Shown in pieces: positions 6,652 to 49,640 of a stretch of 64,000 nucleotides of DNA. A program made the translations under genes and the position numbers. The notes under the pieces are model-generated. The model did not search any database. It had not been told where the DNA came from and saw only the letters and a program-made list of their open reading frames with translations. Position 1 is the stretch's first letter. Each line of letters begins with the position of its first letter. Source of the stretch: an uncultured Solirubrobacterales bacterium (GTDB lineage Bacteria; Actinomycetota; Thermoleophilia; Solirubrobacterales; Solirubrobacteraceae); assembly GCA_963697115.1 (NCBI GenBank), contig CAVOMT010000003.1, positions 24,833 through 88,832 of the forward strand. Reading direction: 5' to 3'.

Positions 6652-8273
6652 CTACGATTCGCCCTTCAACGGCACCGACAGGGATTTCCCTACGCCTGCG
6701 TGACCATCCCATAAGGCCGGTATCGAAAGGGTACCTTGAGATACGCCCATGACGGTCGGTTTGAATGTGACTTCGATTTTGCAGTGAGCACCTGTTGTCA
6801 ATAACGTCGTGCATCCGTTGGTACCGAGCCCAAATTGCCCACCCGCGGGAGCAAGCGTGGGAGTATCGAATATCACGTTGGTGAGCGCTGCGACTAACAC
6901 GCTGGCCGTGCCCGTGTTTCCTAAGGCAATCTCCCCAAAATTAACATCTGCCGCCCTCACGAGCGGCCCTAAGTTGACGAGCGCAGCCTCTTCAACCGCG
7001 TATTTGCCGACCGCTTCTTCTATTTCCCGATAGTCGTGATTGGCGAAGTCGGTCTGCCCGCCAAGAGGATCGACGACGTAACTGAGATAGTCATGAGCCG
7101 TCTGTCCTTCCGTTTCGGTGAGGTCGGCTTCCGTGTACATGGCCAACCCGATATCCCACGTCAGCGTGCATATCGGATAGTTTTCGTTGCCGTTGTTAGG
7201 GTGACCGCCGTACACTTCCGACCAGTCATCGTCCGGGCCGACCGTGGTCGGCTTGTTGGTATAGTTGGTTCCTTTGCAGTTGGCTTCCGAGGTGCCCACC
7301 GCCGGTTCGCCGGCGGTCGTCCCGGGGAACTTGAATTTACCAATCGCTTCATTTTTGACAGCCAGCCACCGCACACCGCCGGCAAAACCTTTGCGAGCGT
7401 CGCTCAGGTTGGCGTAACCTATGCTACCTGAGATTTTTTCAACTTCTTCGACCTCTCCTCCACCCCCATTGTTTGTGGACCGTTTCCAGTCGGAAGCTTC
7501 ATTTGGCCATTCACGATTTGGTTCTGTCTCGGGCTGCAGATCTTTCCATGTGCGACCGCCAGATCCAGGTAGTATACCGTTGTAGATTTCAAACAAGTAA
7601 TGCTTGAACTGGTATGTCGTGCCTGAGCCATCCTTGCGCACGATACGGGTGATTAATGTATTGCATTCCGTGCCTTCATGTGTGGAAATTTCACTCCATA
7701 AGGTAATTTTGTTTAACCAGATTGCCTGAAGGTCACTGTTTTCAATATGATTTTCTTTTAGTTTACAGTTCGTGGGATAGTGCACGATCATCGCAATTGC
7801 GGCTTGCGCCACGGGTACCACAAGCGCCTGTCCAGATGCCGCTAACGCTGCTAAGTCGATTTCGTGCAGCTGTTTAGCGTTCGGAGCGTCATCAGTGCCG
7901 ATGAACTGATCTATTTTTTCTTTGGGGGATTTAGTGCTGTTAACACCCACGCTTCCAGGCCGACCGCGCTCCCCGAAGGGGTATACGTTACGGTCGGCGT
8001 GGCGCCGCTGCCCTGCGTGCCGCTACAGGCGCTTTCCGCGATGGATAACGAGAAACTTTTGCCTGCAAGCGTGCTTTCGTGATCCCATAACTGCTGTGCG
8101 ATCTTCTGCAGCGACGAACCTTCGCCGTGGATGTTCGCGCCCGAACACTGTTCGGCGGCCACGGCCGTGCCCGCGCCCAGCGCGGCACTCAACAAGAACG
8201 CCGCCGCGACGCAGGCGCCAATCAGAGCTGCCGTGCATAACTTCAATGCTGACATGCTTAAGGTGATCCTCAT
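6652..8273 (-). CDS. Secreted PstS-like (PBP) protein with C-terminal Ig-like domain (frameshift near 7945)
   Basis: Signal peptide; GEGSSLQ, FIGTDDAP, RKDGSGTT, GSIGY, YPI motifs; C-terminal NFG...C...C..VTFKP (choice-of-anchor D/ASH-like); AAGGAG RBS. Confidence 0.85.
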
Positions 8274-8375
8274 CCGAGTCTCCTTGGTCGTAGACGAGCC
8301 GGGGCTCGTCCGGTCATGAGCCCATGGGCCCCTTGCGCGTCCTACCCCCAACAGGCGGTACGCGCGAAACATGGT

Positions 8376-8575: not shown

Positions 8576-9976
8576 TTAGGGCTGGGTGTGTCTCACTCCT
8601 GCGGCGATGTCGGATTTGACGGACGCCTCGCCCGCTTCTTTGGAGCCTGGAACCTTGTTCCAGCCGACCCGGCTCTGGCCTTCCTGAGCGTCGGCGAGAA
8701 TCGCGGCCGGCAGCGGCGAGTAGTCACGCACCTTCGCTGCTTCCTGACCGTCCGAGCCGAGGACGTAGGCCAGGAAGTCCTTGACCGTACGCTGCATCGA
8801 CTGACCTTCTTCGGTGTTCCCGAAGACCACCGACGGGTCGTCCCACGCGAGCTCGTAAACAAGCGTGCAGATCGGCCAACCCGTCCTGCTGCCCGCGGCG
8901 GAGACCGCGCGCCAGATCGGTGTCACCGTTGTGTCATAGCCACTCGGAACGTAGTTGAACGTCGGGTTGTCGCAGTTGGCGCCCTTGACGTTGTCTTCGC
9001 CCGAATTCGGGTCGCGAGTCGGCTCCACTCGCTGGCCGGCGCCGTTTTCGACCGAGAGCCAGAAGCCCACGGATTTGCTGTGTTTGATGTTTTTCGGCGA
9101 GAAGAAGCCGAGGCCTTCGGCGCGTGCGAAAGACAGGCTCGAGAAGCCGATCGAGCCACTCGCTTCGGCGACCACGGCCGCCTCTTCCGAATCCCCGCCT
9201 TCGATGCGGCGGGTTGCGGTGGCGCCTTCGTCATTCGGCCATGTGGTGTTCGGTTTGGAGCTCGACTCGGGCCAGCCCCTGGACGGGTCGACCTTCGCAA
9301 GCCACTGCTTGAACGCGTATGTGGTGCCGTCGGACACGCCCGGGACCACACGCACGATCGGAATGGCCGCGCAGGAGGCTTCAATGTCGGGCAGCAGTCC
9401 TCCCCACGTCGAGATTTCGCCCGCGTAGACCTTCTCGAGCTCGGCATTGGACACCGTGAAGCGGCCATCGGCTGTCGCCTCTCCCGCCGGGATTGCGCAG
9501 CCTTCGGGGAAGTGCACGATCGGCACCACAGCGGCGCTCGCGACCGGGATCTGGCGAATCAGGCCCGAATCTTCGCCCGGTTTGTCGCCCAGGTCGATGT
9601 TCAGCCACTGGGCCAGCGTGGGCGGCTCTTCGGTGCCGGCGAAGCGATAGCTCGGATTGCGCACGCCGCTGCTCGCGCCGAGCGCTTCGAGGGAGACAAG
9701 GCTCGTCGTCACCGGGCCGTATTTGATGCTCGGGCCGCGTCCAGCACACGACAGGGGGAAGGTGACGCCTTCTTCCTCGAACTCGGATGCCCAATTGAAC
9801 GCGAGGTTCTGTTGCAGCCCGGTCGGGACACCCGACGCGGTACCACCCGAACATTGCGTTGTGAACGGCGGCGTGAAGTCGGCCTGTGCGACCGATGACG
9901 CCATGAGGGTGAGCGAAGCCGTGCCGAGAAGCACAGCAACCGCCCACCCCAACGATCCAGCAAACAGTCGTCTCAT
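8576..9976 (-). CDS. Divergent secreted PstS-like protein with a degenerate phosphate site
   Basis: IRQIPVA, GSIGF, WPICTLVY and TVKDFL are collinear with the neighbouring PstS-like proteins; R-x-D-x-SGT replaced by VPGVSDGT. Confidence 0.8.
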   Translation of the reverse strand: MRRLFAGSLGWAVAVLLGTASLTLMASSVAQADFTPPFTTQCSGGTASGVPTGLQQNLAFNWASEFEEEGVTFPLSCAGRGPSIKYGPVTTSLVSLEALGASSGVRNPSYRFAGTEEPPTLAQWLNIDLGDKPGEDSGLIRQIPVASAAVVPIVHFPEGCAIPAGEATADGRFTVSNAELEKVYAGEISTWGGLLPDIEASCAAIPIVRVVPGVSDGTTYAFKQWLAKVDPSRGWPESSSKPNTTWPNDEGATATRRIEGGDSEEAAVVAEASGSIGFSSLSFARAEGLGFFSPKNIKHSKSVGFWLSVENGAGQRVEPTRDPNSGEDNVKGANCDNPTFNYVPSGYDTTVTPIWRAVSAAGSRTGWPICTLVYELAWDDPSVVFGNTEEGQSMQRTVKDFLAYVLGSDGQEAAKVRDYSPLPAAILADAQEGQSRVGWNKVPGSKEAGEASVKSDIAAGVRHTQP

Positions 9977-10108
9977 CGGATTGCCTGTCCTTTTCCGCAG
10001 CGTATGACCGGTGTTGAGTCCGGTCATACGCTGCTCGATTGATAGTCGAGGCGATCCTAAGCGCTGTTGTTTAGTTCATTGTCACTAAACTGAGAAACGT
10101 TTAGTCAA

Positions 10109-12268
10109 TTATTTCTTGCGCTTCTTCTTCGGTTTTGGGCCGTACTTCCGTTTGGCCTGCGCAACGCATGCCGAGCGTTTCCGCTTGGCCTTGATTTTGT
10201 CGCACGCCTTCAACGCCTTTGTCAGCTTCTGCGCATTCGTCAGCGGTTTAGCAGGCGGAGGAGGCGTGTGTGTCGTTGTGGTCGTCGTGGCGGGCGGAGG
10301 TGGCGGTGTGGTGGCGGCGGTCGTCGTCGGCGCCGTTGTCGTAGGGGTAGTTGTCGTCGCTTCCGGCGTGCCCTGAATGGTAAGCGACTGGGTCACCGGA
10401 GCGCTCTGCGTTCCTTCTTCATTGACGACCGTCAACGATACCGATTCCTGCCTGCCCTGATGGCCTGTATTGGCGAACCCTCGAGTGTAGGTGTCTCCTT
10501 CGGCAAATTTCTTCGTCACGGTTTGCCCGTCGCCGAATTTCCAGATGTATTCCTTGAGTTTGTTCGTCGGGGCACAGCCGTGCCCAACGGTGCATTGCCC
10601 GGTGGGATCTCTCGAGAGTTCCGCATTGAACGTCACCGCTTCTTCCGGCTTGGGGCTCTGCGGCGAAACTTCGAAGCTCGCTTCCGGAGATGCCGCGACG
10701 ACTTCGATCTGTCGCGTCACCGGCGGTGGGTTGCCGTAGTTCCCGTTGTTTTCGAGCAAGATCTTCAAGCCAACCGTGTAGACGCGCGGCGTGAAATATT
10801 CATCCTGCTCGCTGAGACTCGGTGGTGTTCCCGTCTTCTTGGTTTCGTATTTGCCTGACCCTTCCAGGTCCCACTGCAGTTCTACCGGAGCTTCGCCGTT
10901 CAATCCCGCCTCGACGGCGGTGTAGTTGACTACTTCGCCCTTTTTGACCACCACCTTCGGACTGCTCGAGTCTGAGCCGATCAGGAATGACGCCGTCGGC
11001 GTCGGGCAGCCCGAGCCGTTGGGTCCGAACTTGACCAGGTCGAACCCGTATGACGAGTGTCCAGGGCTTCCCGACGCGAACGCTCCCTCGTCGAGCGCGT
11101 AGACCACGCCGCCTGAGCCCGAGGCGACCGCGGTGGCAGCCGAACCAATCACACAATGGGGAGATGTGCCGCCGCCGAAGACCACCTTCTGGGAGCCGTC
11201 GGTCGTCGACATACCCCTGACCTCATAGCTTCCCGCTTCACTTCCGCTTGCCGGTTTATTGGTCTCGACCGCATAGACGAGGCCTTCGTCCGGCGCCACA
11301 GAGACCTGCGGACCGTAGTCGAGCGATACGCCTCCTTCCCGTCCACCGGTCAGTTCACGAGCACCGCTCACACCAGCATCGCCGGCGACAATAGTCGCTG
11401 TCGCAAAATTGGACGTCAACTTGACCACTCCGGGTAGGTGTGAGGATCCCGAGAGACTGTGTACGCTCAGGAAAAGTGAGCCGTCGGCTGCTATGGAGAT
11501 GCCACTGGCAGATCCCGCGTTTGAGATTTTCTTTCCCGTATCTTCAAAAGTCGCGCCGAGAGCGCCGGCGAGGTACGGAGATGCGCCGGCAGCGATCCGC
11601 TGCAGCACCGTGGGCATGAATTCATTGCCACCACCCAGGGCGACCAGGTCGTGAGTGGTCGGATCGACCGCGAGACCATGTGGCGCAAACAGCGCACCCG
11701 TTTCGCCGGCTTCCGGAAATTTGTAGAACAGCGCCTCTTTAACTCCCGCAACTTCGACTTTTGTTATTTCCGTCGCCGGCTGCAACGCTTCGGTAAAAAC
11801 ATAGATTTCGCCGGCATATGCTTCTTCTTCGTTTGCTTCGTTCTCCTCAAGAACGTAGAGGCGATGCAGCTGTGAATCGAACGCGAGTGCCGCGATCGTA
11901 CGGTGGTGTTCTTCGGGCAGTTCCGGAGTCGGTATCGTGACGCTCGCCACCGGAGTGCCGAGACTTGCGCTGAACTTCTGAATACGAAAACTAGAAGGTC
12001 CACCACCGGAACGGACAGCGCCGGGCTCGTCGAGCACGTAGACACTGTTGTTCGAGGTGTCCACTGCCATGTCCGACGGCCAGCTGAATTCACCGGCTGA
12101 TCCGGCGCCGAATGAGCCCACCTGTGCGAGTTCGCCAAACGCGGCCGCCTGCGCGTCTTCGCTGCCTACCGTGGCAGCAATCACCACACATACAACAGCT
12201 ACAAGAATCGCCGATGCGATCTGTGTGATCGTAGTCCATCGTGTCATATCCATCCCGCTGACTGTCAT
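10109..12268 (-). CDS. Secreted NHL/beta-propeller plus PKD-domain protein with Thr/Pro linker and basic C-terminal tail
   Basis: GEFSWPSDMAVD and PHGLAVDP repeats; WDLEGSG and YIWKFGDG PKD motifs; tail KPLTNAQKLTKALKAC...KRKYGPKPKKKRKK. Confidence 0.85.
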   Translation of the reverse strand: MTVSGMDMTRWTTITQIASAILVAVVCVVIAATVGSEDAQAAAFGELAQVGSFGAGSAGEFSWPSDMAVDTSNNSVYVLDEPGAVRSGGGPSSFRIQKFSASLGTPVASVTIPTPELPEEHHRTIAALAFDSQLHRLYVLEENEANEEEAYAGEIYVFTEALQPATEITKVEVAGVKEALFYKFPEAGETGALFAPHGLAVDPTTHDLVALGGGNEFMPTVLQRIAAGASPYLAGALGATFEDTGKKISNAGSASGISIAADGSLFLSVHSLSGSSHLPGVVKLTSNFATATIVAGDAGVSGARELTGGREGGVSLDYGPQVSVAPDEGLVYAVETNKPASGSEAGSYEVRGMSTTDGSQKVVFGGGTSPHCVIGSAATAVASGSGGVVYALDEGAFASGSPGHSSYGFDLVKFGPNGSGCPTPTASFLIGSDSSSPKVVVKKGEVVNYTAVEAGLNGEAPVELQWDLEGSGKYETKKTGTPPSLSEQDEYFTPRVYTVGLKILLENNGNYGNPPPVTRQIEVVAASPEASFEVSPQSPKPEEAVTFNAELSRDPTGQCTVGHGCAPTNKLKEYIWKFGDGQTVTKKFAEGDTYTRGFANTGHQGRQESVSLTVVNEEGTQSAPVTQSLTIQGTPEATTTTPTTTAPTTTAATTPPPPPATTTTTTHTPPPPAKPLTNAQKLTKALKACDKIKAKRKRSACVAQAKRKYGPKPKKKRKK

Positions 12269-12353: not shown

Positions 12354-12380
12354 AGCTCATCGCCTAGTTCGCCAGAGTGT

Positions 12381-13685
12381 TTATGGCTGAATCAGTGCTG
12401 CCTCTTCCTGCGCGTATTTTCCGACCGCTTCTTCGACTTCCCTGAAATCGTGGGTTTCGAAGTCGAGCTGACCGCCCGTTTTGGCCACGACATAGTTCAG
12501 ATAGTCGTGCGCTGTCTGCTCTTCCGCACCGGTCAAGCCGGCGACTTCGTAGTGAGCAAGCGCCACGTCCCAGGTCAACGTGCAGATCGGGTAGTTTTCG
12601 TTGCCGTTGTTGGGGTGGCCACCGTACGCTTCCGACCAGTCGTCGTCCGCACCGACAGCGACCGGCTTGTTGGTGTAGTTGGTTCCTTTGCAGTTGGCTT
12701 CCGAGGTGCCCGCCGCCGGTTCGCCGGCGGTCGTCCCGGGGAACTTGAATTTGCCGATCGCTTCGTTTTTAACCCCTAGCCACCGCACGCCGGTGGCAAA
12801 GCCTTTACGAGCGTCGCTCAGATTGGCATAGCCGATGCTGCCCGAGGTTTTTTCAACTTCTTCGACCTCGCCACCGCCGCCGCTTTTCCCAGACCTGACC
12901 CAGTTCGCGGCCTGATTCGGCCATTCACGGTTCGGTTCGGTCTCCGGCTGCAGTTCGCGCCAGGTCCGTTCGCCCTTGCCCGCCTGCGATTCTTGCCGTT
13001 TCGTGTTGTTGATTTCAAACAGATAGTGCTTGAACTGATACGAAGTACCCGATCCATCCTGGCGCACCACGCGCGTGATCGCCACTTCGCATTCCGTGCC
13101 TTCGTGGGTCGAAATTTCACTCCATTTCGTGATTTCGTTTGCCCAGACCTTCTGCAGGTCGCTGTTTTCGATGTGATTTTCTTTGAGTTTGCAGTTCGCC
13201 GGATAGTGCACGATCATCGCGATCGCTGCTTGGGCTACGGGAATGACCAACGCCTGACCTTTGTTGCCCACCCCTTTGGCGGCCGTATCAATTTCGCCCA
13301 TCTGCGCCGCACTAGGCGCGTCGTCGGTTCCGATGAACTGGTCGACTTTTTCTTCGGGCGACTTGCCGCTGCCGTTGACCCCCCATGCTGCAAGACCGGC
13401 GGCACTGCCCGACGGGTTGTACATCACGGTCGGTTCTTGGCCGGTGCCCTGCACTCCGCTGCATGCCGAGGCGTCCGCCGATTCGTTGAACCCCTTGCCG
13501 GCAAGCAGGGCTTCATCGTCCCAGATCTGCTGTGCGATCTTCTGCAACGAGGATCCCTCCCCGTGGATGTTGGCGCCTCCGCACTGCGCCGCCAGCGCGG
13601 TGCCCGCGCCGAACGTCCCGCCGAGCGCGAGCGCCGCGGTGGCGCCCATTCCCAACAGGGTCGAGATACTGAACTTGGCTCTCAT
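12381..13685 (-). CDS. Secreted PstS-like protein (close paralog of 6652..8273)
   Basis: Start MRAKFS with AAGGGAG RBS; AxA signal; GEGSSLQ, FIGTDDAP, RQDGSGTS, GSIGY. Confidence 0.9.
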   Translation of the reverse strand: MRAKFSISTLLGMGATAALALGGTFGAGTALAAQCGGANIHGEGSSLQKIAQQIWDDEALLAGKGFNESADASACSGVQGTGQEPTVMYNPSGSAAGLAAWGVNGSGKSPEEKVDQFIGTDDAPSAAQMGEIDTAAKGVGNKGQALVIPVAQAAIAMIVHYPANCKLKENHIENSDLQKVWANEITKWSEISTHEGTECEVAITRVVRQDGSGTSYQFKHYLFEINNTKRQESQAGKGERTWRELQPETEPNREWPNQAANWVRSGKSGGGGEVEEVEKTSGSIGYANLSDARKGFATGVRWLGVKNEAIGKFKFPGTTAGEPAAGTSEANCKGTNYTNKPVAVGADDDWSEAYGGHPNNGNENYPICTLTWDVALAHYEVAGLTGAEEQTAHDYLNYVVAKTGGQLDFETHDFREVEEAVGKYAQEEAALIQP

Positions 13686-13797: not shown

Positions 13798-13836
13798 GTG
13801 AATAAACAGTAATAGTTTACGTTACCTTCCCTAAAC
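13798..13836 (-). promoter_or_regulatory. Degenerate PHO-type repeats
   Basis: GTGAAT 13798, GTAATA 13809, CTAAAC 13831 in 11-nt phase; AT-rich. Confidence 0.45.
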
Positions 13837-16800
13837 ATCTGTGTTTTTGGGTCGTTGATTGCGAGATCGCCGGGAGCTCGACGCACCGACACGCGCGAGC
13901 TGCGGCCTCGCGCCGCGCAGGCCGGCTCCCGCGAACGCGGCCAGGAGCACCAGTCCGAGCGCCCATGCCGGCAATGGCCCTTCTTCGGGCCCGTGCCGGT
14001 AGGCGACCATGTGGTGCACCATCTGGATGGCGCCCTCTTCTTCGCGCTCGTACTCCTCCACCCCGACCGTCTGGGAGACCTCGGCGGTGCCCGAGGGCGG
14101 CGTCGGCCGCGCCGGGTTTGGCGCCGGTGGCGGCAGCAGCGGCAGGATCGGGAACAGCTGGACCGGTGCAAGCGGAACCGCCGGCAGTACCGCCGGGTGG
14201 GCCTGCGCGGACGGCGATGAGGAGACCGGCGCCACAGGCGCGGGAGGCGACGGCGGCGGCGGTAGTGTTTCGGCCGGCGTCGCCGCCGGCGCGGTGGCCG
14301 GCGCCGGCAACGGCACGGGCAGGCCTTCCTGCTGTTCGGGCGCCGGTGGGTGGCGCAGGCGCACGGTGCCACATGGTTGCTCGACGCTGCCGGGCTGCAC
14401 CGTGATCGTCTGTGAGGAGGACAACCCGCCGGCGCGCACCGTGACGGTCGTGGTGCCCGCGTTGTAGGCGCAGAACAGACCCGACTCGACCTGTGGAACC
14501 ACTTCTCGTCGTTCGTTCAGGAGTTCGTCGTCGGGACCTTCTTCGAAGCGTCCGTTCGGGGTGAGTTCTCCTTGATTGGTGCGCGGTTCGTCGGGGATCG
14601 GCCTGCCGGCGGCTTCCTGCAGGACGGTCGTGCCTTCCGGAGAGGTCGGGTCCGCCTCCACGAACTGGCCGATGTCAGGGTTCGACGAGGTGAAGGTGTA
14701 GGACGGGAAGATCCCACTTGCGCAGGCCGCTCCCGTGCAGACGCTCGGGATCGGCACGTAGGGGTCGGGCTTGAAGGCGCAGGCGGCGCTGGCCCTTTCG
14801 CAGAGCATGCCCGCGTGTGGACGGCGCGCCAGTCCCGTGAACTGAGTGGGCTGACTGCGACGCAGCAGCACGCCTCCCGTCGCGTCGAGCGCCAGTTCGG
14901 AGATGTCGGGGATCAGTCGCACACGCACCGGCGCCACGTTCGTCGATGCCTTGCGCCGGTCGGTTTCCACTTCGCTCAGCAGCAGACCGCTGGCCCCGAG
15001 GAAGTCGGTCACGTCCTGTTCGGGCGGCGTGACATAGCCCAGCGTTCCGCTGCCGAACGCTGGGATCGGGATACCGTTTGCGGCCAGGTGGGATATCTGA
15101 TTGCTTTGCGGAGCGTCGTAGAAGTAAGCCGATGCCGCGGCGGTGCCGGCCACTGCGGCGGTCACGCAGCCGGCGGGGGGCGTACCGGCCAAAATCGGCA
15201 CGACCTGTGCTCCATCGGCGGCGACGTTGGCCGTGCCGGCGCTGCTGGTCAGGCCACGACTGCCGATCACGATCGCCGGCACGGGCTCAGGGCCCCCACT
15301 GTTGTTCTCGTGATTTCGCGCCGCCGCGAGCTGTTGGGCCAACCAGCATTGCTGCGGCGTGCCGAGCACCGGGTGTGAGTAGTCGAGCACGATCACCCAC
15401 ACGGACCCGCCGGAACCGGAGCCGGTGGAGAGGAACGCATACGCGCCGCTGCCGCCCGGCGGCGCGGGAGAGCCCGCTGGTGCGGTTCCCACCGGCGCCG
15501 AACCTCCCATCGCCGTCGCGAACGCGGCCAGCGAGCTCTCGTCGAGATCGGAGGCCGACGGCGCCGCGAACACGCTCAATCCCCGGGCAGATTCGGTGAG
15601 CAGCTGGGCGTAGCGCTGCTCCTCGCGCTGGAAGTCGGCTTCTTCGAACCCCGGATCGTCGCTCAGGCCGGGGGCCAGGTGTTCGCCTGTGTACAGGAAC
15701 GCTCGCACCCCCGGGATCTGCGCCGCCTGGCCGATCGCGTTGGTGAGCCACGCGTCTGGGCCAAGCTGGTCCTCGGCCATGTCGGCGCACGCGGTCGCGC
15801 ACTGCGCATTGCCCCCGATCGCGAACGTCGCGTTGCCGGCGGCCGATTCTTCGGGCGTGGCGGCGAAGCCGGCGGGGGCTGCGCCACTGGCCGGGTAGCG
15901 CATGACTCCCGCCGTCTGGATCGGTTCCCGATCGAAGACCGGAAGGTTCTGGTTCAGTTCCCCGCTCTGACCTCCCACGGCCCAACCCTGCCCGCTGCCG
16001 GGGGCGAGCGCGAGCGCGAGCACCGCGTCGGGCACCTCGGGCCAGTCGACCCCGTTCTCGCCGGGCGGCAGGTTCCCGCCTGTGTTGGGCGAGGGGTAGT
16101 CGCGATGCTCCTCGTCCTTCCATCCCGCGGGGGTTTCACGTAGCAGGAAGCCGCTGGCCGGCAGCGGATAGGGCGCAGTGTGGACAGGGGCCTGACCCGG
16201 CTGGGGAATCTGTTCCAGTGCCCGATCGACTTCGCTGCCAGACTCTCTGTCGGTCACGCTCGCCCCCCCGATGTGATCGATCGAGATCACCGGGCGCACC
16301 GTTTCCCCTTCCCTGAACGCCGCCAGCGCAACGGGGTAGCCGGCCACCGGGCCGGCCGGTGTGGGAGTCCACGGAGCGCCTGCGCTCTGGCGTACGAGCA
16401 CGCTCCCGCTGACGAGCGCCACCGCCGCGCCGCCGTCGGGCAGCCCCGCGACCCGCGCCGGTATCTGACCCTGCAACGCGGGGTCGGGATCGACCTGCCA
16501 GCCGCTGCCGCCGTTGACAAGCAGCCCGCCTTCAAAGCCGATGAACCCCTCGTTGGGATCAATGCGCGGGATCTGATAGGTGACGAGCGCCTCGGCGCCT
16601 GCGAAGGCGATCGAAGTGAAGTCGGCGTCCTGGAGCCCGGGCGGCAGCGGTTCCTGTTCCCAGGTCTTGCCATAGCCGAGCAGCACCCCCTGCTGGCCGA
16701 TCGCGTAGCCGCGCGCCGGGTCGGTGGGATCGAAGGCGATCCCGGTGAAGTTGGCCAGGAACAGGTTGGGAGGGCGTGCCGGGTCGGGCTCCCACAACCC

Positions 16801-25731: not shown

Positions 25732-25858
25732 CAACGTCGATGTTACGTCGACGCCGAAAGACGGATACAGCCCGCCCGCGAGCACCCTCTAAACCGAGAC
25801 AACGTTTATTGTTTGGAGCGATGTTCAGAGGTCCACGTCGTGATGTCTGGGGAGATCA

Positions 25859-27294: not shown

Positions 27295-27380
27295 CAACCC
27301 GAGCTCCGCCCTGTGTTGACATTGTTGTTTTTTAGGCAAATCTCGTCACAAACGACCGGTAAGTCCGTCATACTCCGTTC

Positions 27381-32598: not shown

Positions 32599-32660
32599 GA
32601 TTCGGTCGCTCGCGGCCGTTCGTCCGCAGTCCAATCGTCAACGCGATCGTCCTCGCAGGC

Positions 32661-32677
32661 GTGACAATTTTGTGAAC
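32661..32677 (-). promoter_or_regulatory. PHO box
   Basis: Minus strand GTTCAC-AAAAT-TGTCAC, 11-nt spacing, upstream of the zinc-ribbon/phosphoesterase pair. Confidence 0.75.
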
Positions 32678-39945: not shown

Positions 39946-42169
39946 GGTCTGCGCCCCGGGTCTCGCTCGGGCGCGGGACGGCGCACGTCGCGCAGTTCCT
40001 CGAGCGTCGTCTCCTGCACCGTCGAGAGCACGGCGTCGAGCGCCACGCCCGACAGCGTCTCCTGCTCGAGCAGCGCGTTGGCGGTCTCCTCGACGGCGTT
40101 CCAGTGGCGGTCGAGGATGAACGCGGCGCGTGGCTTCGGCGTCGCCGACGAGCCGCTCGACCTCGCGGTCGATCAGATCGAGCGTGGACGGCCCGACCGA
40201 GCCGAGGTCCTGCAGCGAGGCGCCGAGGAAGACCTCGCCGCCCTTCTCGCCGATCGTGACGGGACCGAGCGCGGTTGACATGCCGAAGGAGGTGACCATG
40301 CTGCGCGCGAGCGAGGTCGCGGCGTGCAGATCGTCGCTGACGCCCGTGGAGAGGCTGCCGAACGCGATCCGCTCTCCGGCGGTGCCCGCGACGATCACGA
40401 TCAGCTGGCGCTGCAGGTCGAACTCGGTCTGGATCACCTGGTCGCGGTCGGTGAGCATGTGCGCAGCCGTGCCGAGCGTGCGCCCGCGCGCGACGATCGA
40501 GAGCTTGCGCGTAGAGCTGGTGTGCCCGAGCGCGTCGGTGACGACGGCGTGCGAGGCCTCGTGCACGGAGATCAGCCAGCGCTCCTCGCGCGTGAGGATG
40601 TGCTTTTTGGCGGGTCCGGCGACGACGCGATCGATCGACTCCTCGAGCGTCGCCTGGTCGATCTCGTGGTTGGCGTCGCGCACGCTCAAAAGCGCCGCCT
40701 CGTTGATCACGTTCGCGAGCTCGGCGCCGCTGAAGCCGGGCGTCTGATGCGCGATCTCCTCCAGCGAGACGTCGGGGCCGAGCGGGCGCTTGGAGCCGTG
40801 CAGGCGCAGGATCTCCAGGCGCCCGTGCACGTCGGGGACGTCGATCGTGACCTGGCGGTCGAAGCGCCCGGGACGCAGCAGCGCGGGGTCGAGGATGTCG
40901 GGGCGGTTGGTCGCGCCCATCACGACGAGACCGCCGTCGCCGGAGAAGCCGTCCATCTCCACCAGCAGCGCGTTCAGCGTCTGCTCGCGCTCGTCGTTGC
41001 CCTGCCCGATGCCGGCGCCGCGCTTGCGCCCCGCGGCGTCGAACTCGTCGATGAAGATGATCGCCGGGGCGGCCTTGCGCGCCTTGGCGAACAGGTCGCG
41101 CACGCGCGCCGCGCCGACGCCGACGAGCGACTCGACGAAATCAGAGCCCGACAGCGAGAAGAACGAGGCGTCGGCCTCGCCCGCGACGGCCTTCGCGAGC
41201 AGCGTCTTGCCGGTGCCCGGAGGCCCGACCAGCAGGACCCCCTTCGGCGCGGCCGCGCCCACGTTCAGGTAGCGCGAGGGGTCGTTGAGGTAGTCGCGGA
41301 TCTCCCTGCAGCTCGGCCACCGCCTCGCCGGCGCCCGCAACGTCCGCGAACGTAATCGCTTCGGTTTTGCCCTTGCCCTTCTTGCGTCCTTTGCCGGTGA
41401 ACTCCGAGAACGCGGCGATCCCGCCGGCGCCACCGTCGGCGCCGATGCGCATGAACAGCGCGAACAGGCACACGAGCAGCAGAATCGGCAGCAGGAACTG
41501 CACGAGGATCGCGCGCGGGGCCTTGCCCGACTGCTGATCGACGTTGACCACCACGCCCGCGCGTGTCAGGGTCTGCAACAGCCCCTGCGTCTGCGCCCCC
41601 GAGACGGGATACGCGGCCCAGTATTCGAGCTTCGCCGGCGTAGCCAGTGGGGCGTTTTTAGAAGTCGTGTTGAGCTGTTCGGAGGCGGATGTCGTCGTAC
41701 CCGCCGCCGTGGTCCCACCGGAAGTCGTCCCTGTCGGCGTGCTGCCGGCAGTCGGCGTCTTCAGCGCGATCTCCACGCGATCGTCGTGATCGAGCAGCGT
41801 CGCGGTCGCAACCTGTTTGTGTTCGGCCAGCGAGACCACGCGGCTGATCGGCAGTTCCGTGCCGTGACTGGAGGGACCGATCGATCCTAGCAACAGGAAG
41901 AACATGACCGCCAGCGCGATCGATGCGACCGTGAGGAACAGCGCCAGCTTGTCGCGGAACACGAGCCGGCGCACGCCGATCGCGATGTCACCCGCCGTGG
42001 CGAGCACCGGATTGCGTTTTTGTGCGAGACCAGAGCGCACCGACGGACGAGCGGCCGATGAGCGTGGCCTGGGAACGCCCGCAGCCCCACCCGGTGCGCG
42101 GCCGTTTGCGGGCGCAGGACTCGTATCTCCGGGCTCTGCGCCCTCGGGCTGGATGTCGTCGTCGGCCAT
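39942..42169 (-). CDS. ftsH: FtsH-family protease, copy B (frameshifts near 41310 and 40130)
   Basis: [31 protein letters not shown]; highly similar to copy A. Confidence 0.9.
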
Positions 42170-42317: not shown

Positions 42318-44395
42318 CTAGCCTTTTTTCTTGCCTTTCTTCTTCTTCTTCGGCGTGATCGCGGCCTGCGTGATCGTGATCGTCTTCGTCTTGCTAGCCG
42401 CCGTTCCGCCCGTGGGCGTGAACGTCACCGTGATCTTGACCGAGAGCTTGTGGCCCTTGACCTTCGCCAGCTTCTTCAGCGTCGCGCTCGAGATCGGCAA
42501 CGTCACCGTTCCCTGACCGCCACCGACGCTCGCCGTCACATTCGAGACCGTAACGCTGCCGCCGACCGCCTTGATCTGCACTTTCCCGGCGTCGGGCAGA
42601 ACCAAGGAGAGCACGATGCTCTTGCCCTTGATCTTGGTCCCGGCTACCGAGAAAACGTTGCTCGGGGGCGTGACGACCGTCGTTGCGACCGTGGTCGCGA
42701 CTGTATTCGGTTTGCTTTCCGGCGGTTTCACTGTTTCTTCGCTACCACCGCCGGAACCGGCCGACTTGTCCCAGTCGATCGCTTTTACGCCATTTTCGGC
42801 GATCTGGATGACATTGAGCGGCAGCGTTCCATAGTCGTGCAACGCCAGCTGGAACTGACCCTTCGTTGACTCAACGCCTTCGAGATAGTCCTTCACCGTT
42901 CTGGCCTTTTCCTGCTCGAGTTGGCTTTCGCCGTAGACGGGGGCGTCGTCGTCCCAAGCGAAGTCGTAGGTCAGACCACAAACCGGATAGGCATGGATCG
43001 CGTCGCTTGCAATCGCGGAGGCCGTCGCGCCCGTGCCGATCGCATTTTCCCAATCGCCGAGCGTCGGATCCGCCCCCGCGGTCGGGTACCCGCGGTAATC
43101 GGCATCCGTACAGTCTGCGCCTTCGGGCGAAGCGCTGAGGTTGGATTTCGGTTCTTCGGTGGGCTCAACATAGGTCGCACCCACAGCGTCCCCTTCTTCG
43201 GGACTGACCGTCTGCATCGGGACCCAATAGGTGTGATCGTCTTTTTTCTTTTCCATACTGAAGCCCTTCTTGCGCGACGTGGCAAGGTCGGCGTAGCCGA
43301 TTGAGCCATTGGTCGCCGCCACCGCTTCCGTAAGAGGTCCTCCGCCGTTGGCAAGCGCGGTGCAGATGTGGTTTGTCGCTTCGCACACCTTCGTTGATTC
43401 GTTCACCTTCCCCGGCTGTTTCTTTTCGGCGTTGAACGTTTCAGGCCAGACGTGGTTGTCTCCGGCCACCGGCGCCGAAGTCCACAAGCCCGAAGGCGCG
43501 CCAGGGAGCAGACTCAGGTACGACTTGAAGTTGAACGTCGTGCCCGATCCGTCGAACCGCACGATGCGCATCACCGGCAGCGCACCGCAAACCGCCGGTG
43601 TTGTTCCTTTGCCGGAAGCCGTGTCTTCTTCCATATCGGATACGGGGACGATTTCTTCCCATTTCACCGCTTCTCCGTCCCAGATTTTCTCCATCTCGGG
43701 GGCGGTGATGTGTACACGCAGCGTTTCTTCAGAGTACTTGTCACCAGTGTAGCCACCAGTGGTGTCGTTGTTCTTCCCCGTTACTTCAGAACCAGTACCT
43801 GCTTCGCCTGGTGCAAGTCCGCCTGTGCTCGTATCCCCGTTGCCGGCGGGAAGGGCCGGGTTCTTCAGCTTGCAGCCGTCGGGAAAGTGCACGATGATCG
43901 CGACCGCGAACGATGCAACCGGGATCTGGTGGATTACACCGGGTTTTTCGCTACCCGCATCATCGGCATTGGCCTGCTGAGTGACGGTCAGCGGAGCGTC
44001 GCTCCCCCCGAAACGGGTCGATTCGGCGCGTTTACCGGGACCTGATTCGGAGATTTTGAAACCGAAGCATTCAGCGCTGGTGGCTTCTCCACCAATCGAG
44101 GCGATTCCGCAGCCACTGCCTTCAGGGGCATACGTTACGGCCGGAGCGGAGCTGCCGCAACCTTCCGTGCTGCTATGCCAAACCGTGGTCGTCCAGAATT
44201 CCAACTGCGCTTCCTTCTGGGCCGACGAACCTTGGCCCGCCACGGGAGCGCCTTCGCATTGCCGACGGTAAACGCGGCGTGGGCCGACGGTGGCGCCATA
44301 GCCGCGGCGAAAGCCAAAGCGGCCATCGCGCATAGCGCCGCAACGACGGCGCGGGTACGACCGCGTTCTGCGGTCAGGGGAAAGCTTGCACGCAT
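42318..44395 (-). CDS. Large secreted PstS-like protein with basic Ig-like C-terminal domain (frameshift near 44260)
   Basis: Signal peptide AHA; GQGSSAQ, FGGSDAP, RFDGSGTT, GSIGY; tail KKKKKGKKKG. Confidence 0.85.
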
Positions 44396-44473: not shown

Positions 44474-44566
44474 GTTCACAGAAGATATACAAGCCGGTAA
44501 CGGGGCAGCATCAAGTTGTGACGCGAAGTTACGACTTGGTTTCAGGTTGGTAACAAGGTGGTAACA
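44474..44566. promoter_or_regulatory. Array of PHO-type repeats
   Basis: GTTCAC 44474 and GGTAAC 44496; AGTTAC 44527, GGTTTC 44538, GGTAAC 44549, GGTAAC 44560 in 11-nt phase. Confidence 0.6.
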
Positions 44567-44831
44567 GGCCCTGCTTGTTTCATCAGCGTCGACGGTAGAC
44601 GTGGGCGCGGTGAGCGACCGCGACCACACTGACCGTCTGGGTCTTGTGGTCGAGCGCGTAGATCACGCGATAGGGGACGCGGCGTACCGGGCTCAAGGCT
44701 TACCGAGACGCCTTGAAATTGGCAGTGATCGTGGGCAAGAAGTCGAGGGTCGCGGTCGTGTACCGCTCGGGTATCCGCTGGAGCCGGCGTTGAGCGATTG
44801 GCATCACCCGCAGGCGCCCATGACGCCCCGT

Positions 44832-45188
44832 TCACGCCGCTACTGGCGCGGCCATCTCTGTAGAGCTTGACATCAGGGCAAGCCGGTCGACACCGTCTGC
44901 TCCGATGACAAGTGCGCTGTGCTGCTCCAGAGCTCCGATGACGATAGCCAGACGCTGATGCAGCTCGGCCGGCGAGCCGCCGACCAGGGTGACATCGATC
45001 TCGATCGTGTCGTGCTCGAAGTCCGCGCACGCCGATGCACCCGGCGCGATGTCTGCGACGTGATCGCCGAGAACCTCCTCGACGTGGAAGGCAGCCGCCT
45101 CCAGGAGCTCGCGAGGCACCCGCTGTGGCGCCTTGAGGGTGATCAAAGCAGACGCTTCAATCGTCGATATGCCGTTCTCGATGGTCAT
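44832..45188 (-). CDS. Acidic hypothetical protein, putative antitoxin
   Basis: Directly downstream of the HicA-like gene, GAGG RBS, acidic, about 118 aa. Confidence 0.5.
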   Translation of the reverse strand: MTIENGISTIEASALITLKAPQRVPRELLEAAAFHVEEVLGDHVADIAPGASACADFEHDTIEIDVTLVGGSPAELHQRLAIVIGALEQHSALVIGADGVDRLALMSSSTEMAAPVAA

Positions 45189-45199
45189 CGCCTCTGATT

Positions 45200-45442
45200 C
45201 TACGCCTTCAGACCCGATCTTTTGAGTGCGGAGAGCTTGTTTGCGCGGGTACGTGATCCGCTCGGAGTGCTCGGAATCGGGACCATCCGCATGTCGTTGG
45301 GTGGATAGCACTTGATGTGCTTGTTGCCGGCCCGCTCGCACCACCAGCCCTGCGCCCATACGCGCGCAACCAGATCATCCATCTCCTTGTTCGGGAGCTT
45401 GGGACGTCGGGCATGAGGATCGGCGGCTCGCTTTGGATGCAT
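45200..45442 (-). CDS. HicA-like toxin
   Basis: Small basic protein AQGW..ERAGNKHIKCYPP..VPIPSTPS..LKRSG. Confidence 0.7.
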   Translation of the reverse strand: MHPKRAADPHARRPKLPNKEMDDLVARVWAQGWWCERAGNKHIKCYPPNDMRMVPIPSTPSGSRTRANKLSALKRSGLKA

Positions 45443-45492: not shown

Positions 45493-47651
45493 TCAGCCCT
45501 TCTTCCCCTTCCCCTTCCCGGAGGACTTCTTCGCGGGCGAGGCCGTGACGAATGTCGCGGCCACTTCGTCCGAGAGCGTTTCGGCCGGTGCCGGGGGCGT
45601 GAAGGCGATTGTGACGTTGGCCTTGAGCTTGCCGGCGCGCTTGAGCTCCTTGAGGTACTTGGAGGAGATGTGGAGCGTCAACGTGGTCGTGCCCTCCGAG
45701 CGCGCGTTCGCCGTCGTGCTCGCAAGCAGCACTGGCGGCGCCGGCTTGCCTTTCTTCTTGGCCTTTGCCGTGTGGGCGGAGGACTTGCGTGCAGGCGAGG
45801 GCTTGGCCGTCGCGATCTTGGGGATCGAGCCGCGAGCCTTGGCCGTCAGCCTGCCGGGGCCGGGCGTCTCCACGAGCAGGATGAGACCACCGTCCTTAGC
45901 GCGCTTGACGGAAACACCGAGTTCCGGAGAGGAGATTGCGGTCAAAGAAAAACCACCTGAACCAGCGTTGACTTCGGCCGGTGCCGGCGCCGTTCCGCCT
46001 GCAGCTTGGAGCTTCGTCGTAAAGGCGTCGGCGGCGCTGTTGGCGTCACCGAAGATGAGGTCGGTCGCCGAGGAGACAAAAGCCACCATCGAGCCGTCCT
46101 GGGACAACGTCGGATTGACCAGGACAGACCGGTTCGGATCGCCGCCTTCGTAGTTCAGCACCGCGCGTTCGAGAGTGTTCGAGTCCAGATGGATCACGTA
46201 CAGATCGCTAGCGGTCGGACAGCGCGCGAAGCGAGCCGATCAGCTGCGGTTCGGGCAATACGAAGCTGTCGCGCAGGGAGGTGAACGCGATCGTCGATCC
46301 ATCCGGCGAAAGCGCCAGCGATTCGATCGACGGCGTCGAGCCCGGGTTACCAGACCGGACGCCGAGGGTCAGCTCGCGAGTGCCCGCCTTGCGCGACACG
46401 CCGGGTCTCATGCTCGTGACAAACACATCCAGGCCACTCGACTTCGTGACGTTGGGACGCGATGCCGATCCTGCCAGGAACGCGACGGTGTAGCCATCGC
46501 CGCTCAACCCCGGAGCTGTCAGAGCGATACTCCCCAAAGCGGACTCGGGCTCACTCAGCGGCCCGTAGCAGGGACCGGTTGCAGTCTCATTGAGTGTGAT
46601 TTCTCCATCGGGAGGGCAAGCCGGATCATCGGGATCAGCGATACCTGTAATGCGTCGCGTCGCGGCATCCGGTTCCTGCCAACGCTGCCACAAGTAGTGG
46701 GGTTCGCTCGTATTCAACGACTCGCCGGACAGGAACCGGGTTTGTGCCGGGCGCGTTGGTCGCCACCCATGCGACAGTTGAGCCATCAGCGCTGATCGTG
46801 GCTGGCCCAATCGCCCCGCCCGCCGGCTTGCCTTCTTCGGGTTCGCCTTGTTTCTGCCGACTCACAAGCGTGGTCGTCCGCGCAGTCAGATCTCTTACAA
46901 AGAGTTGTTCTGGCGGCGTTTCGACACCAGCGTCATCGGGCAGGTTGACGATGCTTCGTCGTTCGGAACGCGACGTAGCGGCCATCGGCCGATATGGCCG
47001 TGTTCGGCCATACCTCCGCGCCGGGTTCTGCCCGGCATGAGGGGCTTCATGCAAGGTGTAGCTGGCCGGTTCTTCTCCTCCGCTCTTTGCCGAGACGAGC
47101 GTATAAGCGCCAGAGTCCTTGCGTTCGGCCGTGAGCGGCACGTCCATGTCGCGCACATAGACGTCGAAATTTTCGTTTGTTGTCTTGGGGGCAAGCTGCT
47201 GAGCAGTGTCGAAAGGCGACGTAGCGTCCGTCGGCGCTGATAGATGGATTTTCGCGCCCCTTCAAGGATCAGGTCAGAGGGATCGCATTCGCCTTTCGAG
47301 TTCAGCGCCGACCTCGTGCCGTCGGCCACCAGCGCAAGTTCGCCCGTGTCGCGGTCGTAACGGAAAATTCCGCCCTCCCGGCACACACCAGGCGGTTCGG
47401 GGTCTCCACCGCGACGCCATCGTTTTCAAAGAAGTTGGTCGCGCGCGTCTGAAAGACGACATAGCGCCCATTAGCCGAGATCGCTGCATCGGTGGTTGCT
47501 GCGTCGGCCTGTTCATCGGAGGCATGATCGACCGAGACGATTTCAGCGCCGAAACCCCCAGCCGCCGGCCCATAGATCGCATGCGCCGAGGCGGCGAACA
47601 CGAGCAAGCAGAGAACCGCGACCTGGCCCCGAGACGAAGAACCCGCTTCAC
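45493..47651 (-). CDS. TolB-like propeller protein, copy B (frameshifted paralog of 20201..22453)
   Basis: ISANGRYVVF, ISADGSTVAW, LSPDGSTIAF, LIFGDANSAADAF; basic tail. Confidence 0.8.
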
Positions 47652-49640
47652 GAAACCTTCACCACCCTGCGCACCTTGGCCGGTTGCCGGCCTTGTCAGA
47701 GGCCGTGACGGTGATCGTGTATGTGCCCCCGGAGGCGTAGCGATGGCTGAGCACGGTGCGCCCACGTGCGCTGCCATGCCGGCCGCCGACACCGAAGCTG
47801 ACCTGCACCGAGCTCGCTTCAACCCCGGAGACCTGCCCGTGCGCCCCGTCGCTGACGCGCACGGTGACCGAACTGCCGCGCACGCGCACGCTGCACTTGC
47901 GGGGGTGTGCGATCGACCTTGATCGTGGCGGGCACGGAGTCGACGACCTGCCCGAGCGAGTCGGTCGCCTCGACCTGGATCGTGTGGACGCCGCTCGAGA
48001 TCTCCGAGCCGTGGAGGATCGTTTCGGTGGTGGTGAGGTTTTCGGCGACTTCGCGGTCATCGACGAGCACGCCGTAGGTGATCGCGCCGGCGCCCGCCAA
48101 GGGGGTTTCCCACTGCAGCGGGACTTTCGCGGCGTGGACCCAGCCCGAGGGCGTGTCGAGCACGAACTCGCCCGGAGGGGCGCGCACGACGACGGCGCCG
48201 ATCTTGGTGTTGGCGCCGTCGCCCTGCAGGAAGCCGACGATCGCGTCGCCGTGGTGGGAGCCGCCGATCTGCAGCTGATGCACGGTGCCGCCGCCGGGTG
48301 CGGAGACGAGCTGGCGGTTGGGGGTGCCGTCCGCCCGGCGCTCGAGCACGCCGACGGCGCCGGCGCCGTGCTCGTCGACCTTCCAGGCGGCGGCGAGCGC
48401 GCCGTTGTCGGCGCGCGTGAGCACGGGTTCGCCGGCGATGTCGCTGGCGCCGTCGTCCATGCGCACGGGCGTGGAGAGGCCGGCTTCGGCGCCGCGCGCG
48501 TCGAAGCTTGCGACGCCCGAGCCGAAGCCGACGTCGAAGTCGCCCTCGCCGTCGAGGCCGAGGCTGAGCGGACCGATCGGGCCCGCAGGCCCTTCGGCGC
48601 CGCCGCCATCGACGATCCGCGCGGGCGCGAAGGCGGCGCCATGGGGGTCGAACGAGGAAGGGATCTCCGAGACGAACACGCGCGGGCGGGTGAAGCCCGA
48701 GCCGGGCGCGGGCTGCTGGCGCCAGGCGACCGCGCCCTCGCCGAAGCCGGCGGTGTCGAGCGCGAACTCATCGGCGGGGCCGTTGAGCGCGTGGCCCGCG
48801 TAGGTGGAGGGACTGACCTGGAGGATGTTGCCGGGCGACCATCCCGAAGATGCGCCGCGCGTAGATGCGGTTGACGAACGAGTCGTCGGGCTCCTGCCAG
48901 GCGACGATGCCCTGCCCGGTGAGATCGATCGCCACGCGCGGGGAGTTGGCGGCGGTGGGCGCGAGCATCGGCTGAGCGAGGTTGCGGTTCAGCGGCTGCC
49001 CGAACGAGGACCAGAACTCGCCGTCGAAGCGCGCCATGCGGATTTCGGCCTTCACATAGCCAGGCGGGATTTCCGGCGTCGAAGGGCCGCTGATGGCGGT
49101 GATCACGCGGTAGGCGACGAGCGCGCTGCCGGCGAGGTTCATCGCCACCGACGGGTAGGTGCCGATCGCCTGGCCGATGTTCAGGTCGACCGGGACCGGC
49201 GGCTGAAAGCCGGTCGAGCCGGGCTCGAGCGCCGCGGAGAAGAGACCGTCGGTCGTGGAGGAGTAGTGGTTGGTCCAGACCACCACCAGCCGCCCGCCTT
49301 CGCCGGCGCCGATCGCCGGGAAGGAGGATTCGAAGGGCTGGCCGACGTCGACGCGCTGCGGCGCCTGCCACGCCCCGTGGGAGTAGAGCGCGGCGAAGAT
49401 GTGCGGGCGCCCGTCGACGCGCTTGCGGTAGACGAGCCCGCCGCTGCCGTCGGTGGCCATCGCGACGCCGCCGAGTTCGACGATTTCCGCAGCTGGCGCC
49501 GTCGAGCGTGGTGACCGGCGAGATCAGCGCCACCGCCGGGGCCGGCGCGCCAAGGAGCACCACGAGCAGCGGCACGAGCGCGAGCAGCGAGCAGGTTCGG
49601 GCGCGAACGCGCGGGCGTCGAAACTCCCGGACGCCACGTG
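47648..49640 (-). CDS. PKD-domain secreted protein, copy B (frameshifted paralog of 22450..24510; start approximate)
   Basis: MATDGSGGLVY, ALVAYRVIT, VAWQEPD..IYARRIFG, HRYASGGTYTITVTASD. Confidence 0.8.

Follow-up and report, generated by a model that had tools for sequence, protein, structure and literature searches.

A conserved surface-protein module with PHO-type promoters and its own FtsH in Solirubrobacterales, a candidate system for phosphate capture

Introduction

In monoderm bacteria the PstS protein of the phosphate ABC transporter carries a lipoprotein anchor and its gene lies within the pstSCAB operon. Thermoleophilia are abundant in poor soils and, to our knowledge, how these bacteria win scarce, mineral-bound phosphate has been little studied. 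This article describes a gene module of the order Solirubrobacterales which encodes propeller proteins, a giant membrane-anchored surface protein, PstS-like proteins and a private FtsH protease, and which occurs twice in a 64-kb stretch (the window, to which all positions refer) of contig CAVOMT010000003.1 from an uncultured member of the order. The source genome comprises 2.96 Mb in three contigs and is 55% complete; where relatives of its proteins carry an organism name, they belong to Solirubrobacteraceae.

The PstSCAB-PhoU system of the actinobacterial PHO regulon shares with this locus the consensus and spacing of the promoter boxes, the PstS-family fold, the phosphate-site residues and a divergent pst operon. 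Unlike the transporter subunit, however, the module PstS-like proteins are not lipid-anchored, are encoded outside the ABC operon and score below the PstS cut-off, and none of the described Pst systems found includes a giant protein, propellers or an FtsH. The PstS/DING appendages of Pseudomonas aeruginosa likewise consist of phosphate-binding proteins that are secreted and exposed on the cell surface when phosphate is limiting (PMC3949141; PMC2242829); the module differs from them by its membrane-anchored scaffold and private FtsH, no type II secretion genes were seen in the loci, and DING proteins are only a distant match. The module FtsH has the full architecture of its family, exceeds the TIGR01241 cut-off and keeps the Walker A/B and HExxH motifs, and the FtsH1/3-PhoU pair of Synechocystis offers a precedent in phosphate control (PMC11287208). 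It departs from the family in forming a separate clade, in having Leu for the aromatic pore residue, in lying beside the gene of a giant surface protein and in being additional to the housekeeping FtsH. One domain of the giant has the fold of calcineurin-like metallophosphoesterases (Lmo2642, 2xmo; purple acid phosphatase; Rv0805), but its metal ligands are lost (partly in distant relatives) and it is embedded in a surface protein of 1,400-1,600 amino acids. In the Esr threat-sensing pathway of Actinomycetales, too, a single cluster encodes a surface propeller protein, an ATPase of the AAA+ type and a pseudophosphatase domain; this pathway relies on MoxR/vWA proteins, Ser/Thr kinases and FHA outputs, its pseudophosphatase domain is on the FHA output protein, and the main text of that study includes neither FtsH nor PstS (PMC13622651). 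MoxR, vWA, Ser/Thr kinase and FHA were all absent among the window genes scanned; the neighbors of relatives were scanned in part.

Each part of the module belongs to a known fold or family and it is the architecture as a whole that appears new. No description of it was found in full-text literature searches, with most subscription journals and supplements outside their reach. If the interpretation given below holds, the conserved surface module of 16 kb, present in roughly one in five Solirubrobacteraceae, would represent a new route of phosphate acquisition or sensing. A lineage of FtsH that serves a single surface protein would likewise extend the known uses of this protease, which would here drive release, turnover or signaling across the monoderm envelope.

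Organization of the two copies

A sequence-only reading of this stretch had reported six gene types present twice, which pairwise protein comparison and Pfam bear out. Copy A is encoded on the minus strand. It is headed by a secreted protein with a C-terminal PKD domain (22450-24510; Pfam), followed by a TolB-like (PD40) propeller protein (20201-22453; Pfam), a BNR-like propeller protein with a basic C-terminal Ig-like domain (18510-20204; both domains read from sequence pattern, no Pfam match), the giant (13831-18513; 1545 amino acids from the ATG at 18468, with an in-frame GTG at 18513 that overlaps the BNR stop) and a secreted PstS-like protein (12381-13685). An accessory secreted NHL-propeller/PKD protein (10109-12268; Pfam; homologs in few loci only) and two further PstS-like genes follow, so that three PstS-like genes (12381, 8576 and 6652) make up the 3' end. 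FtsH-A (27965-29950) sits apart from the rest of copy A on the opposite strand.

Copy B, also on the minus strand, runs from the PKD protein at its head (47659-49640; frameshifted, start approximate) through the TolB-like protein (45493-47661; frameshifted), an insert, the secreted PstS-like protein (42318-44395; one frameshift, in the N-terminal part), FtsH-B (39936-42169; frameshifts at about 41307 and 40131), the BNR-like protein (38158-39990; frameshifted, ends approximate) and the giant (33479-38140; frameshifted in the assembly, start approximate) to a lectin-like gene (32688-33482). The latter is a seventh conserved gene of the module, overlooked in the sequence-only reading. The order PKD, TolB, BNR, giant is common to both copies, as had been observed, and stop and start codons overlap at the five junctions checked (ATGA, ATGA and GTGA in copy A; in copy B, GTGA between PKD and TolB and ATGA between the giant and the lectin gene).

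The two copies are real, but the duplication is not recent. Identity between copies amounts to 30-42% for the PKD protein, 38% for the TolB-like protein (one weak segment), 34-44% for BNR, 32-44% for the giant and 27% for the PstS-like protein, and reaches 76% for FtsH (ATPase/protease part). Recent tandem duplication is ruled out by identities of 27-44%, by different nearest relatives for each copy and by the grouping of FtsH-A with other genera; the last two features point to old paralogy or transfer.

Single-base frameshifts interrupt many genes, those of copy B as well as the ordinary pstC, pstA, pstB and DUF47. Because the extra base is absent from short-read contigs of related strains (~92-95% alike) at several copy-B sites (e.g., 41308, 40135, 39439 and 38985), the copy-B frameshifts are most likely long-read assembly errors, and true pseudogenization was rejected as their main explanation.

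Distribution of the module

Locus maps of relatives show conserved linkage of the module genes to each other and to pst genes, in agreement with the sequence-only reading; the homologs are not scattered and the module is real. The relatives are kin and not independent, hence the co-occurrence counts show linkage rather than separate events and overstate significance.

Among 100 genomes of the family, the BNR gene is present in 16 and the lectin-like gene in 15, with 14 shared (the three exceptions are fragmented assemblies); module-type PstS-like proteins at E<1e-80 occur in exactly those 14 genomes, and weaker matches in six others. Across 300 genomes of the class the BNR gene was detected in eight, from five families of one order, and was not found in the 245 genomes of seven other families. 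For locus structure, 20 module loci of at least 23 kb were retained from 30 tabulated stretches; the remaining ten were six short contigs and four halves of split loci. The PKD, TolB-like, PstS-like, BNR and giant genes are present in 20/20 of these well-flanked loci, FtsH in 17 (the three without it are from one genus), the lectin gene in 17 and pstS1 in 13, while 14 contain a pst operon of any kind. Most often, and in three families, the genes follow the copy B order and face away from a pstS1CAB-lipoprotein-zinc-ribbon-coiled-coil cluster. Presence is patchy, extending to about a fifth of the Solirubrobacteraceae sample, which fits an accessory acquisition system.

Promoter boxes and probable co-regulation

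The PhoP consensus of Streptomyces is GTTCACC, in 11-nt direct-repeat units (PMC4415409). Copy B is transcribed divergently from the pst genes, as originally noted, across a control region (49693-49736) located between PKD-B and pstS1, which holds a perfect GTTCAC-N5-GTTCAC box, GTTCACATCCTGTTCAC, at 49720-49736 (plus strand, 20.7 bits) and an imperfect one at 49693-49709 (minus strand). The consensus and spacing of the perfect box match the Streptomyces PhoP units. Box matches with at most two mismatches number 14 in the window against 3.46 expected, a count reached by none of 100 shuffles. With a matrix trained on 13 sites of ordinary pho promoters only, eight sites of at least 14 bits were found within the window, compared with 31 across the remaining 2.9 Mb (0.68 per 64 kb). 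A score of 12 bits or more was reached in 16 of the 59 intergenic regions that belong to the module only, in 7 of the 12 divergent regions that are shared and in 10 of the 154 other regions (Fisher p about 1e-4, overstated by kinship). At 12 promoters, three of which belong to split FtsH halves, the head of the module and pstS1 are transcribed in opposite directions, and FtsH-A is preceded by a box-like repeat of its own (27911-27927, plus strand, 15.8 bits). This enrichment supports the earlier proposed link of the promoters to PHO control, and the module is likely co-regulated with the pst genes. A box-like repeat at 47646, within the PKD/TolB stop-start overlap, may be due to chance.

Two further observations concern PHO-type elements of the region. 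A strong box-like repeat (19.9 bits, 3620-3636) lies upstream of an undecaprenyl-diphosphatase (BacA) gene (2369-3571), and the pho islands of Solirubrobacterales contain several receiver-less winged-helix proteins together with one full response regulator (window 57880-58467 and 63700-64000; loci L038, L048 and L050).

PstS-like proteins and PstS1

Compared with PstS structures, the module PstS-like proteins reach a best E of 1e-24, and with DING proteins about 1e-5. The phosphate-site residues, in E. coli numbering (equivalents of T10, S38, D56, R135, S139, G140 and T141), are intact in both 12381 and 42318. They are kept in 78-88 of 88 aligned PstS-like proteins per position, the S38, D56 and R135 equivalents in 88/88; this set was obtained by profile search and leaves out the degenerate type of gene 8576. 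The latter (8576-10027, minus strand) has lost the GSG and RxDxSGT motifs of the site. The third gene of copy A (6652-8272, minus strand; PF12849) is of low GC, matches 12381 at 72-75%, shows a frameshift near 7950 and encodes a C-terminal Ig-like domain. A basic C-terminal Ig-like domain, of the same kind as on the propeller proteins, is found on many PstS-like proteins including that of copy B.

No lipobox was found in the 24 module PstS-like proteins from relative loci, and the N-terminus of the copy A protein has no lipobox Cys. Their genes lie in the module, outside the pstSCAB operon, and the module PstS-like protein scores 45 bits against an NCBIfam PstS cut-off of 205. DING proteins bear an N-terminal DINGGG signature. 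The mature N-termini of the module proteins read C-x-G-x-x-I-x-G-x-G-[AS]-S, the DINGGG signature is absent from them, and the DING match is weak. A module-type PstS-like protein is on record for a named species, Solirubrobacter deserti (WP_202957639.1; the PstS-like protein alone was looked up), which makes the idea testable.

Divergent from copy B, pstS1 (49804-50616; signal peptide, no lipobox) opens a plus-strand operon with pstC1, pstA1, pstB1 and a conserved lipoprotein gene (49804-54513). A lipobox is present in 0/15 pstS1 products (including that of L012:10046-10813), 11/11 ordinary PstS proteins and 12/13 lipoproteins encoded after pstB1. This lipoprotein, which closes the pstS1 operon, is conserved and belongs to no known family; it might tether the non-lipidated PstS1. 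Its gene is found in 31/100 family genomes, a wider spread than that of the module, and thus the pstS1 operon does not need the module. Outside the module, the window also contains a second, ordinary pstS2(lipoprotein)CAB-phoU operon (58571-63497, plus strand) with its own box at 58427.

The giant and the accessory surface proteins

Giant A is composed of a signal peptide, an N-terminal region, a seven-bladed propeller (residues 458-862), a metallophosphoesterase fold without metal ligands (876-1254), an Ig-like domain, a Pro-rich linker, a PxPPGG-EEE motif, one transmembrane helix and an Arg-rich tail. A structure model of residues 440-1380, with the N-terminal 430 residues outside it, has a predicted local distance difference test score (pLDDT) of 89. 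Its propeller has seven blades and WD40/YCF48-like neighbors (Z 26.9, root-mean-square deviation (rmsd) 2.9, 281 residues aligned), its metallophosphoesterase fold matches 2xmo (Z 24.2, rmsd 3.4, 273 aligned) and, by Foldseek, purple acid phosphatase and Rv0805, and a beta-rich Ig-like part follows. From its sequence pattern, we infer a second propeller in the N-terminal region.

Active metallophosphoesterases possess five motifs (DxH, GD, GNH, H and GHxH) that give seven metal ligands, and these were located in the giant by strand order in the model. The first Asp is replaced by Gly in 116/118 sequences and the first His by Ala in 113/118, and no alignment column has His in >30% of the 118 sequences. 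The pseudo-phosphatase proposed from sequence is thus upheld by the model and the alignment, and, with all His ligands lost, an active phosphatase was rejected for the giants of Solirubrobacterales.

A C-terminal hydrophobic helix is present in 110/120 giant homologs, with a tail of median 29 residues; the Pro-rich linker has a median of 86 residues (80 measured), and close as well as remote giants share a PxPPGG...EEE-x-A-x-E motif above the helix. In PEP-CTERM and LPXTG-type sorting signals the same arrangement of motif, transmembrane helix and basic tail is found on many unrelated proteins of one genome. When the tail motif was searched in the 15,806 reading-frame ends of this genome (55% complete), only the two giants scored (85 and 76 bits; the next at 16.5), which rules out a general C-terminal sorting signal. 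Homologs of the giant number at least 230; among the 120 listed, those with names are hypothetical or repeat proteins, and all with a stated taxon are from Solirubrobacterales. A PDB sequence search with the giant returned YCF48 as the only match. Prediction of a complex between its phosphoesterase plus Ig part and the PstS-like protein gave a score of 0.00, uninformative either way.

Some giants (P0117, P0323-P0326) are fused to lytic-transglycosylase/M23 peptidase domains, and stand-alone genes of this kind flank several module or pstS1 loci (L016:10793-13816, L038-L039, L048), hinting at local wall remodeling.

The product of the seventh gene (32688-33482) is exported and has a mean column identity of 62%. 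Its model is of low confidence (pLDDT 52), nearly all of the top 50 structural matches are lectin folds with Z at most 6.8, and a PDB sequence search gave no match; a C-type-lectin fold is probable. The propeller proteins have no phosphatase family match in Pfam or NCBIfam, and models of NCBIfam, Pfam and PADLOC identify only repeats and domains in the surface proteins.

The FtsH protease

The module FtsH matches Pfam AAA and M41, scores 629.7 with TIGR01241 (cut-off 600) and has two N-terminal transmembrane helices read from sequence. HExxH is found in 21/21 module copies (HEASH in FtsH-A) and Walker A/B is kept. An aromatic residue is the usual key of the FtsH pore loop (E. coli F228 region; bioRxiv 2026.05.06.723347). 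Pore loop 1 reads ESLVG (as in FtsH-A) or EALVG in all giant-linked copies, versus EMFVG in housekeeping FtsH, and this Leu appears to mark an FtsH variant; the change is also seen in a sister clade of four proteins that are not giant-linked. By quick tree and FastTree, the 21 module copies form one clade (Shimodaira-Hasegawa-like approximate likelihood ratio test 98) separate from the housekeeping FtsH that these genomes also encode, and with distant-class proteins added a clade of 22 giant-linked and three unplaced members has a support of 95 (FastTree). A dedicated FtsH, as first suggested, is therefore found; its casting as a side helper for assembly or turnover did not stand, since FtsH and the giant make up the invariant core.

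In the 100 family genomes this FtsH is present in 22 and the giant in at least 20, with 19 shared. Six further copies, including those of three genomes with FtsH only, were checked, and in 6/6 cases a giant-like gene longer than 1,200 codons lies at most ~4 kb away, whereas the 9-18 kb around them contain neither pst genes nor boxes; in two genomes (G018, G065) FtsH lies 8-10 kb upstream of the giant. PADLOC 2023 profiles returned generic AAA matches only for FtsH and none for nine other proteins scanned.

Pairs of FtsH and giant-like genes that lack PstS-like genes, pst boxes or most accessories were observed at L086:16748-20000 with L087, and at L109, L110, L111 and L137-L142. At three FtsH plus giant-like loci the match spans the propeller part of the giant only, and a short BNR-like gene comes next.

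Homologs outside the class and the invariant core

In 400 genomes of the phylum, giants outside the class were detected in two families, in one of them in 9/21 genomes. Of 13 such loci, ten have a PstS-like gene within two genes and eight an FtsH (four of the other five are near contig ends), four include pst genes, one of them with phoP/phoR-like genes directly upstream, and none of the 13 has a BNR, TolB, PKD or lectin gene. The order PstS-like, giant, FtsH recurs in another actinobacterial class. Distant giants keep part of the metal site (motif-1 D/E in 49/51, motif-4 His in 13, motif-5 His in 16). In the distant class, loci with an intact PstS-like site include pst genes or a promoter box in 5/6 cases and those with a degenerate site in 0/4. 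Still more distant giants occur in records labeled Ca. Dormibacteria and Ca. Angelobacter, and all three genes are present in five of eight metagenome loci (two of which look like one strain; a ninth locus, of 1.6 kb, was dropped).

These comparisons define three putative layers: a core of FtsH and giant, a ligand-binding PstS-like subunit, taken to be specific for phosphate in pho-linked copies, and the accessories of Solirubrobacterales, namely three propeller proteins and the lectin-like protein. On this evidence the invariant core, the giant plus one FtsH clade, is smaller than the module, and phosphate capture would be one subtype of a wider system. The original reading as a phosphate system would accordingly hold for that subtype and not for a sizeable branch of the family without visible phosphate link.

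Biological role

For the copies in the window the favored reading, held tentatively at somewhat short of an even chance, is a PHO-linked surface assembly for phosphate capture, with a dedicated FtsH that pulls on its anchor or cuts it. It is preferred because of co-regulation with the transporter of an anchorless PstS1, the extra PstS-like copies, the linked phosphoesterase and the patchy distribution. The operon would be switched on together with pstS1CAB under phosphate scarcity. The giant would act as a wall-crossing scaffold to which three propeller proteins and a lectin-like protein have been added in Solirubrobacterales, and the PstS-like subunits, perhaps with the dead phosphatase pocket too, would retain phosphate or phosphoesters on the outside of the cell, close to the secreted phosphoesterase and to PstS1, which is not lipidated. 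In general, FtsH engages its substrates by a short cytoplasmic tail and comes to a halt where it meets a folded or low-complexity segment. It is known to unfold and thread soluble and membrane substrates (PMC7949044). The giant would be the FtsH client because its tail is the only part of a surface protein within FtsH reach; the protease would grip this tail, extract the membrane helix and stall at the Gly/Pro/acidic segment, resulting in release or turnover of the assembly.

Several findings weigh against phosphate capture. In six of the 20 well-flanked loci the retrieved stretch does not include a pst operon; three of these belong to one genus, in which a half with FtsH and the lectin gene lies elsewhere, divergent from pstS1CAB. 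Box orientation is mixed at the module promoters and the head of copy A reaches only 9.2 bits, so that regulation could be of either sign. The eight metagenome loci are devoid of pst genes and boxes, their aligned PstS-like proteins are degenerate in 6/6 cases, and loci with FtsH and giant exist that have no PstS-like gene, pst gene or box; such relatives imply that the function of the core is wider than the capture of phosphate. In this order the giant is not expected to act as a hydrolase, given its lack of any His column above 30% in 118 sequences, and its degradation by FtsH is proposed from gene linkage and general FtsH behavior.

A three-part sensor, in which the secreted PstS-like protein reads external phosphate (in degenerate copies, another ligand) and docks on the giant, whose tail gates an FtsH that degrades a cytoplasmic regulator (such as PhoU, DUF47 or a stand-alone winged-helix protein), is a less probable but serious alternative. 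It would account for the persistence of PstS-like, giant and FtsH across classes beside phoPR, phoU and pstSCAB, with a binding protein that varies and an FtsH that stays in one clade, and for a PhoR-like kinase in only 1/30 Solirubrobacterales loci and none in the window; in 6/20 loci (one duplicate locus dropped) the gene after the lectin gene encodes a winged-helix protein without receiver domain. Pseudo-enzyme domains often sense ligands. FtsH1/3 lowers PhoU under phosphate deficiency in Synechocystis (PMC11287208), and signaling by surface propeller and AAA+ protein is known from the Esr pathway (PMC13622651). However, a folded domain is missing from the cytoplasmic side of the giant, and no single target gene accompanies FtsH throughout the loci. 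Surface proteins totaling over 4,000 residues, together with additional PstS-like copies, would be expensive for a sensor, and with ~80% of the family sample lacking the module it cannot be the main phosphate sensor.

A broader and unlikely proposal is that of a trans-envelope machine, in which the FtsH motor would pull the tail of a giant receptor through the Pro-rich stalk and strip or report the ligand of a secreted binding protein (a "phosphatophore" with a TonB-like energizer built from a protease); a swapped binding protein would re-target the device across Actinomycetota and the records labeled Ca. Dormibacteria.

That phosphate-starved cells use the module as a surface adhesin or appendage to attach to minerals, other cells or a biofilm matrix, FtsH serving its assembly, release or recycling and phosphate binding being incidental, is improbable. 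The several propellers, the PKD and Ig domains and the lectin-like protein would suit such a structure, as would the PstS/DING appendages of Pseudomonas (PMC3949141) and the persistence of FtsH and giant pairs without any phosphate gene, but the phosphate site of the PstS-like proteins is strictly kept in pho-linked copies and decayed in unlinked ones, and the surfaces are conserved rather than hypervariable.

Propeller phosphatases exist, and distant giants retain part of the metal site; even so, an active surface hydrolase, with propellers or the phosphoesterase domain of the giant cleaving organic phosphate in the style of PhoX or propeller phytase, is very improbable in view of the His ligands lost in all 118 Solirubrobacterales-type sequences, of propeller proteins without Pfam or NCBIfam phosphatase match and of a modeled propeller that is seven-bladed with WD40/YCF48-like neighbors. 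A chance gathering without functional unity, to which the pho-island setting and the shuffled gene order of several genera might speak, has a negligible probability, since the genes co-occur almost perfectly in different genera and in five families, their codons overlap, adjacencies have re-formed where the order was shuffled, and the private FtsH clade extends over more than one class.

Other genes of the region

Between FtsH-A and the lectin-like gene lie the genes of a zinc-ribbon membrane protein and of a coiled-coil/phosphoesterase (PF04185) fusion (30100-32634, minus strand), with a PHO-box-like repeat at 32661-32677; their counterparts in relatives come after pstS1CAB. The highly conserved coiled-coil protein (30100-31812; about 60-76% identity) is usually a separate gene after pstS1CAB and is here fused to the PF04185 phosphoesterase. 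The region between copy A and FtsH-A (24724-27806) encodes a TctC-like binding protein, an unknown membrane protein and a helix-turn-helix protein, the gene of which recurs beside module genes in three other loci. The insert between TolB-B and PstS-like-B (44542-45400) has a lower GC content at third codon positions and a 175-amino-acid open reading frame without Pfam match, and no insert was seen at the corresponding place in the relatives mapped. A restriction-modification pair of low third-position GC (Eco57I-type methylase and probable nuclease, 54549-57400) is located between both pst operons, directly after the DUF47 gene. Finally, a basic Ig-like domain or Lys-rich segment ends many secreted proteins (10109, 18510, 20201, 42318 and those of relatives) and is possibly a lineage-wide wall-binding tag.

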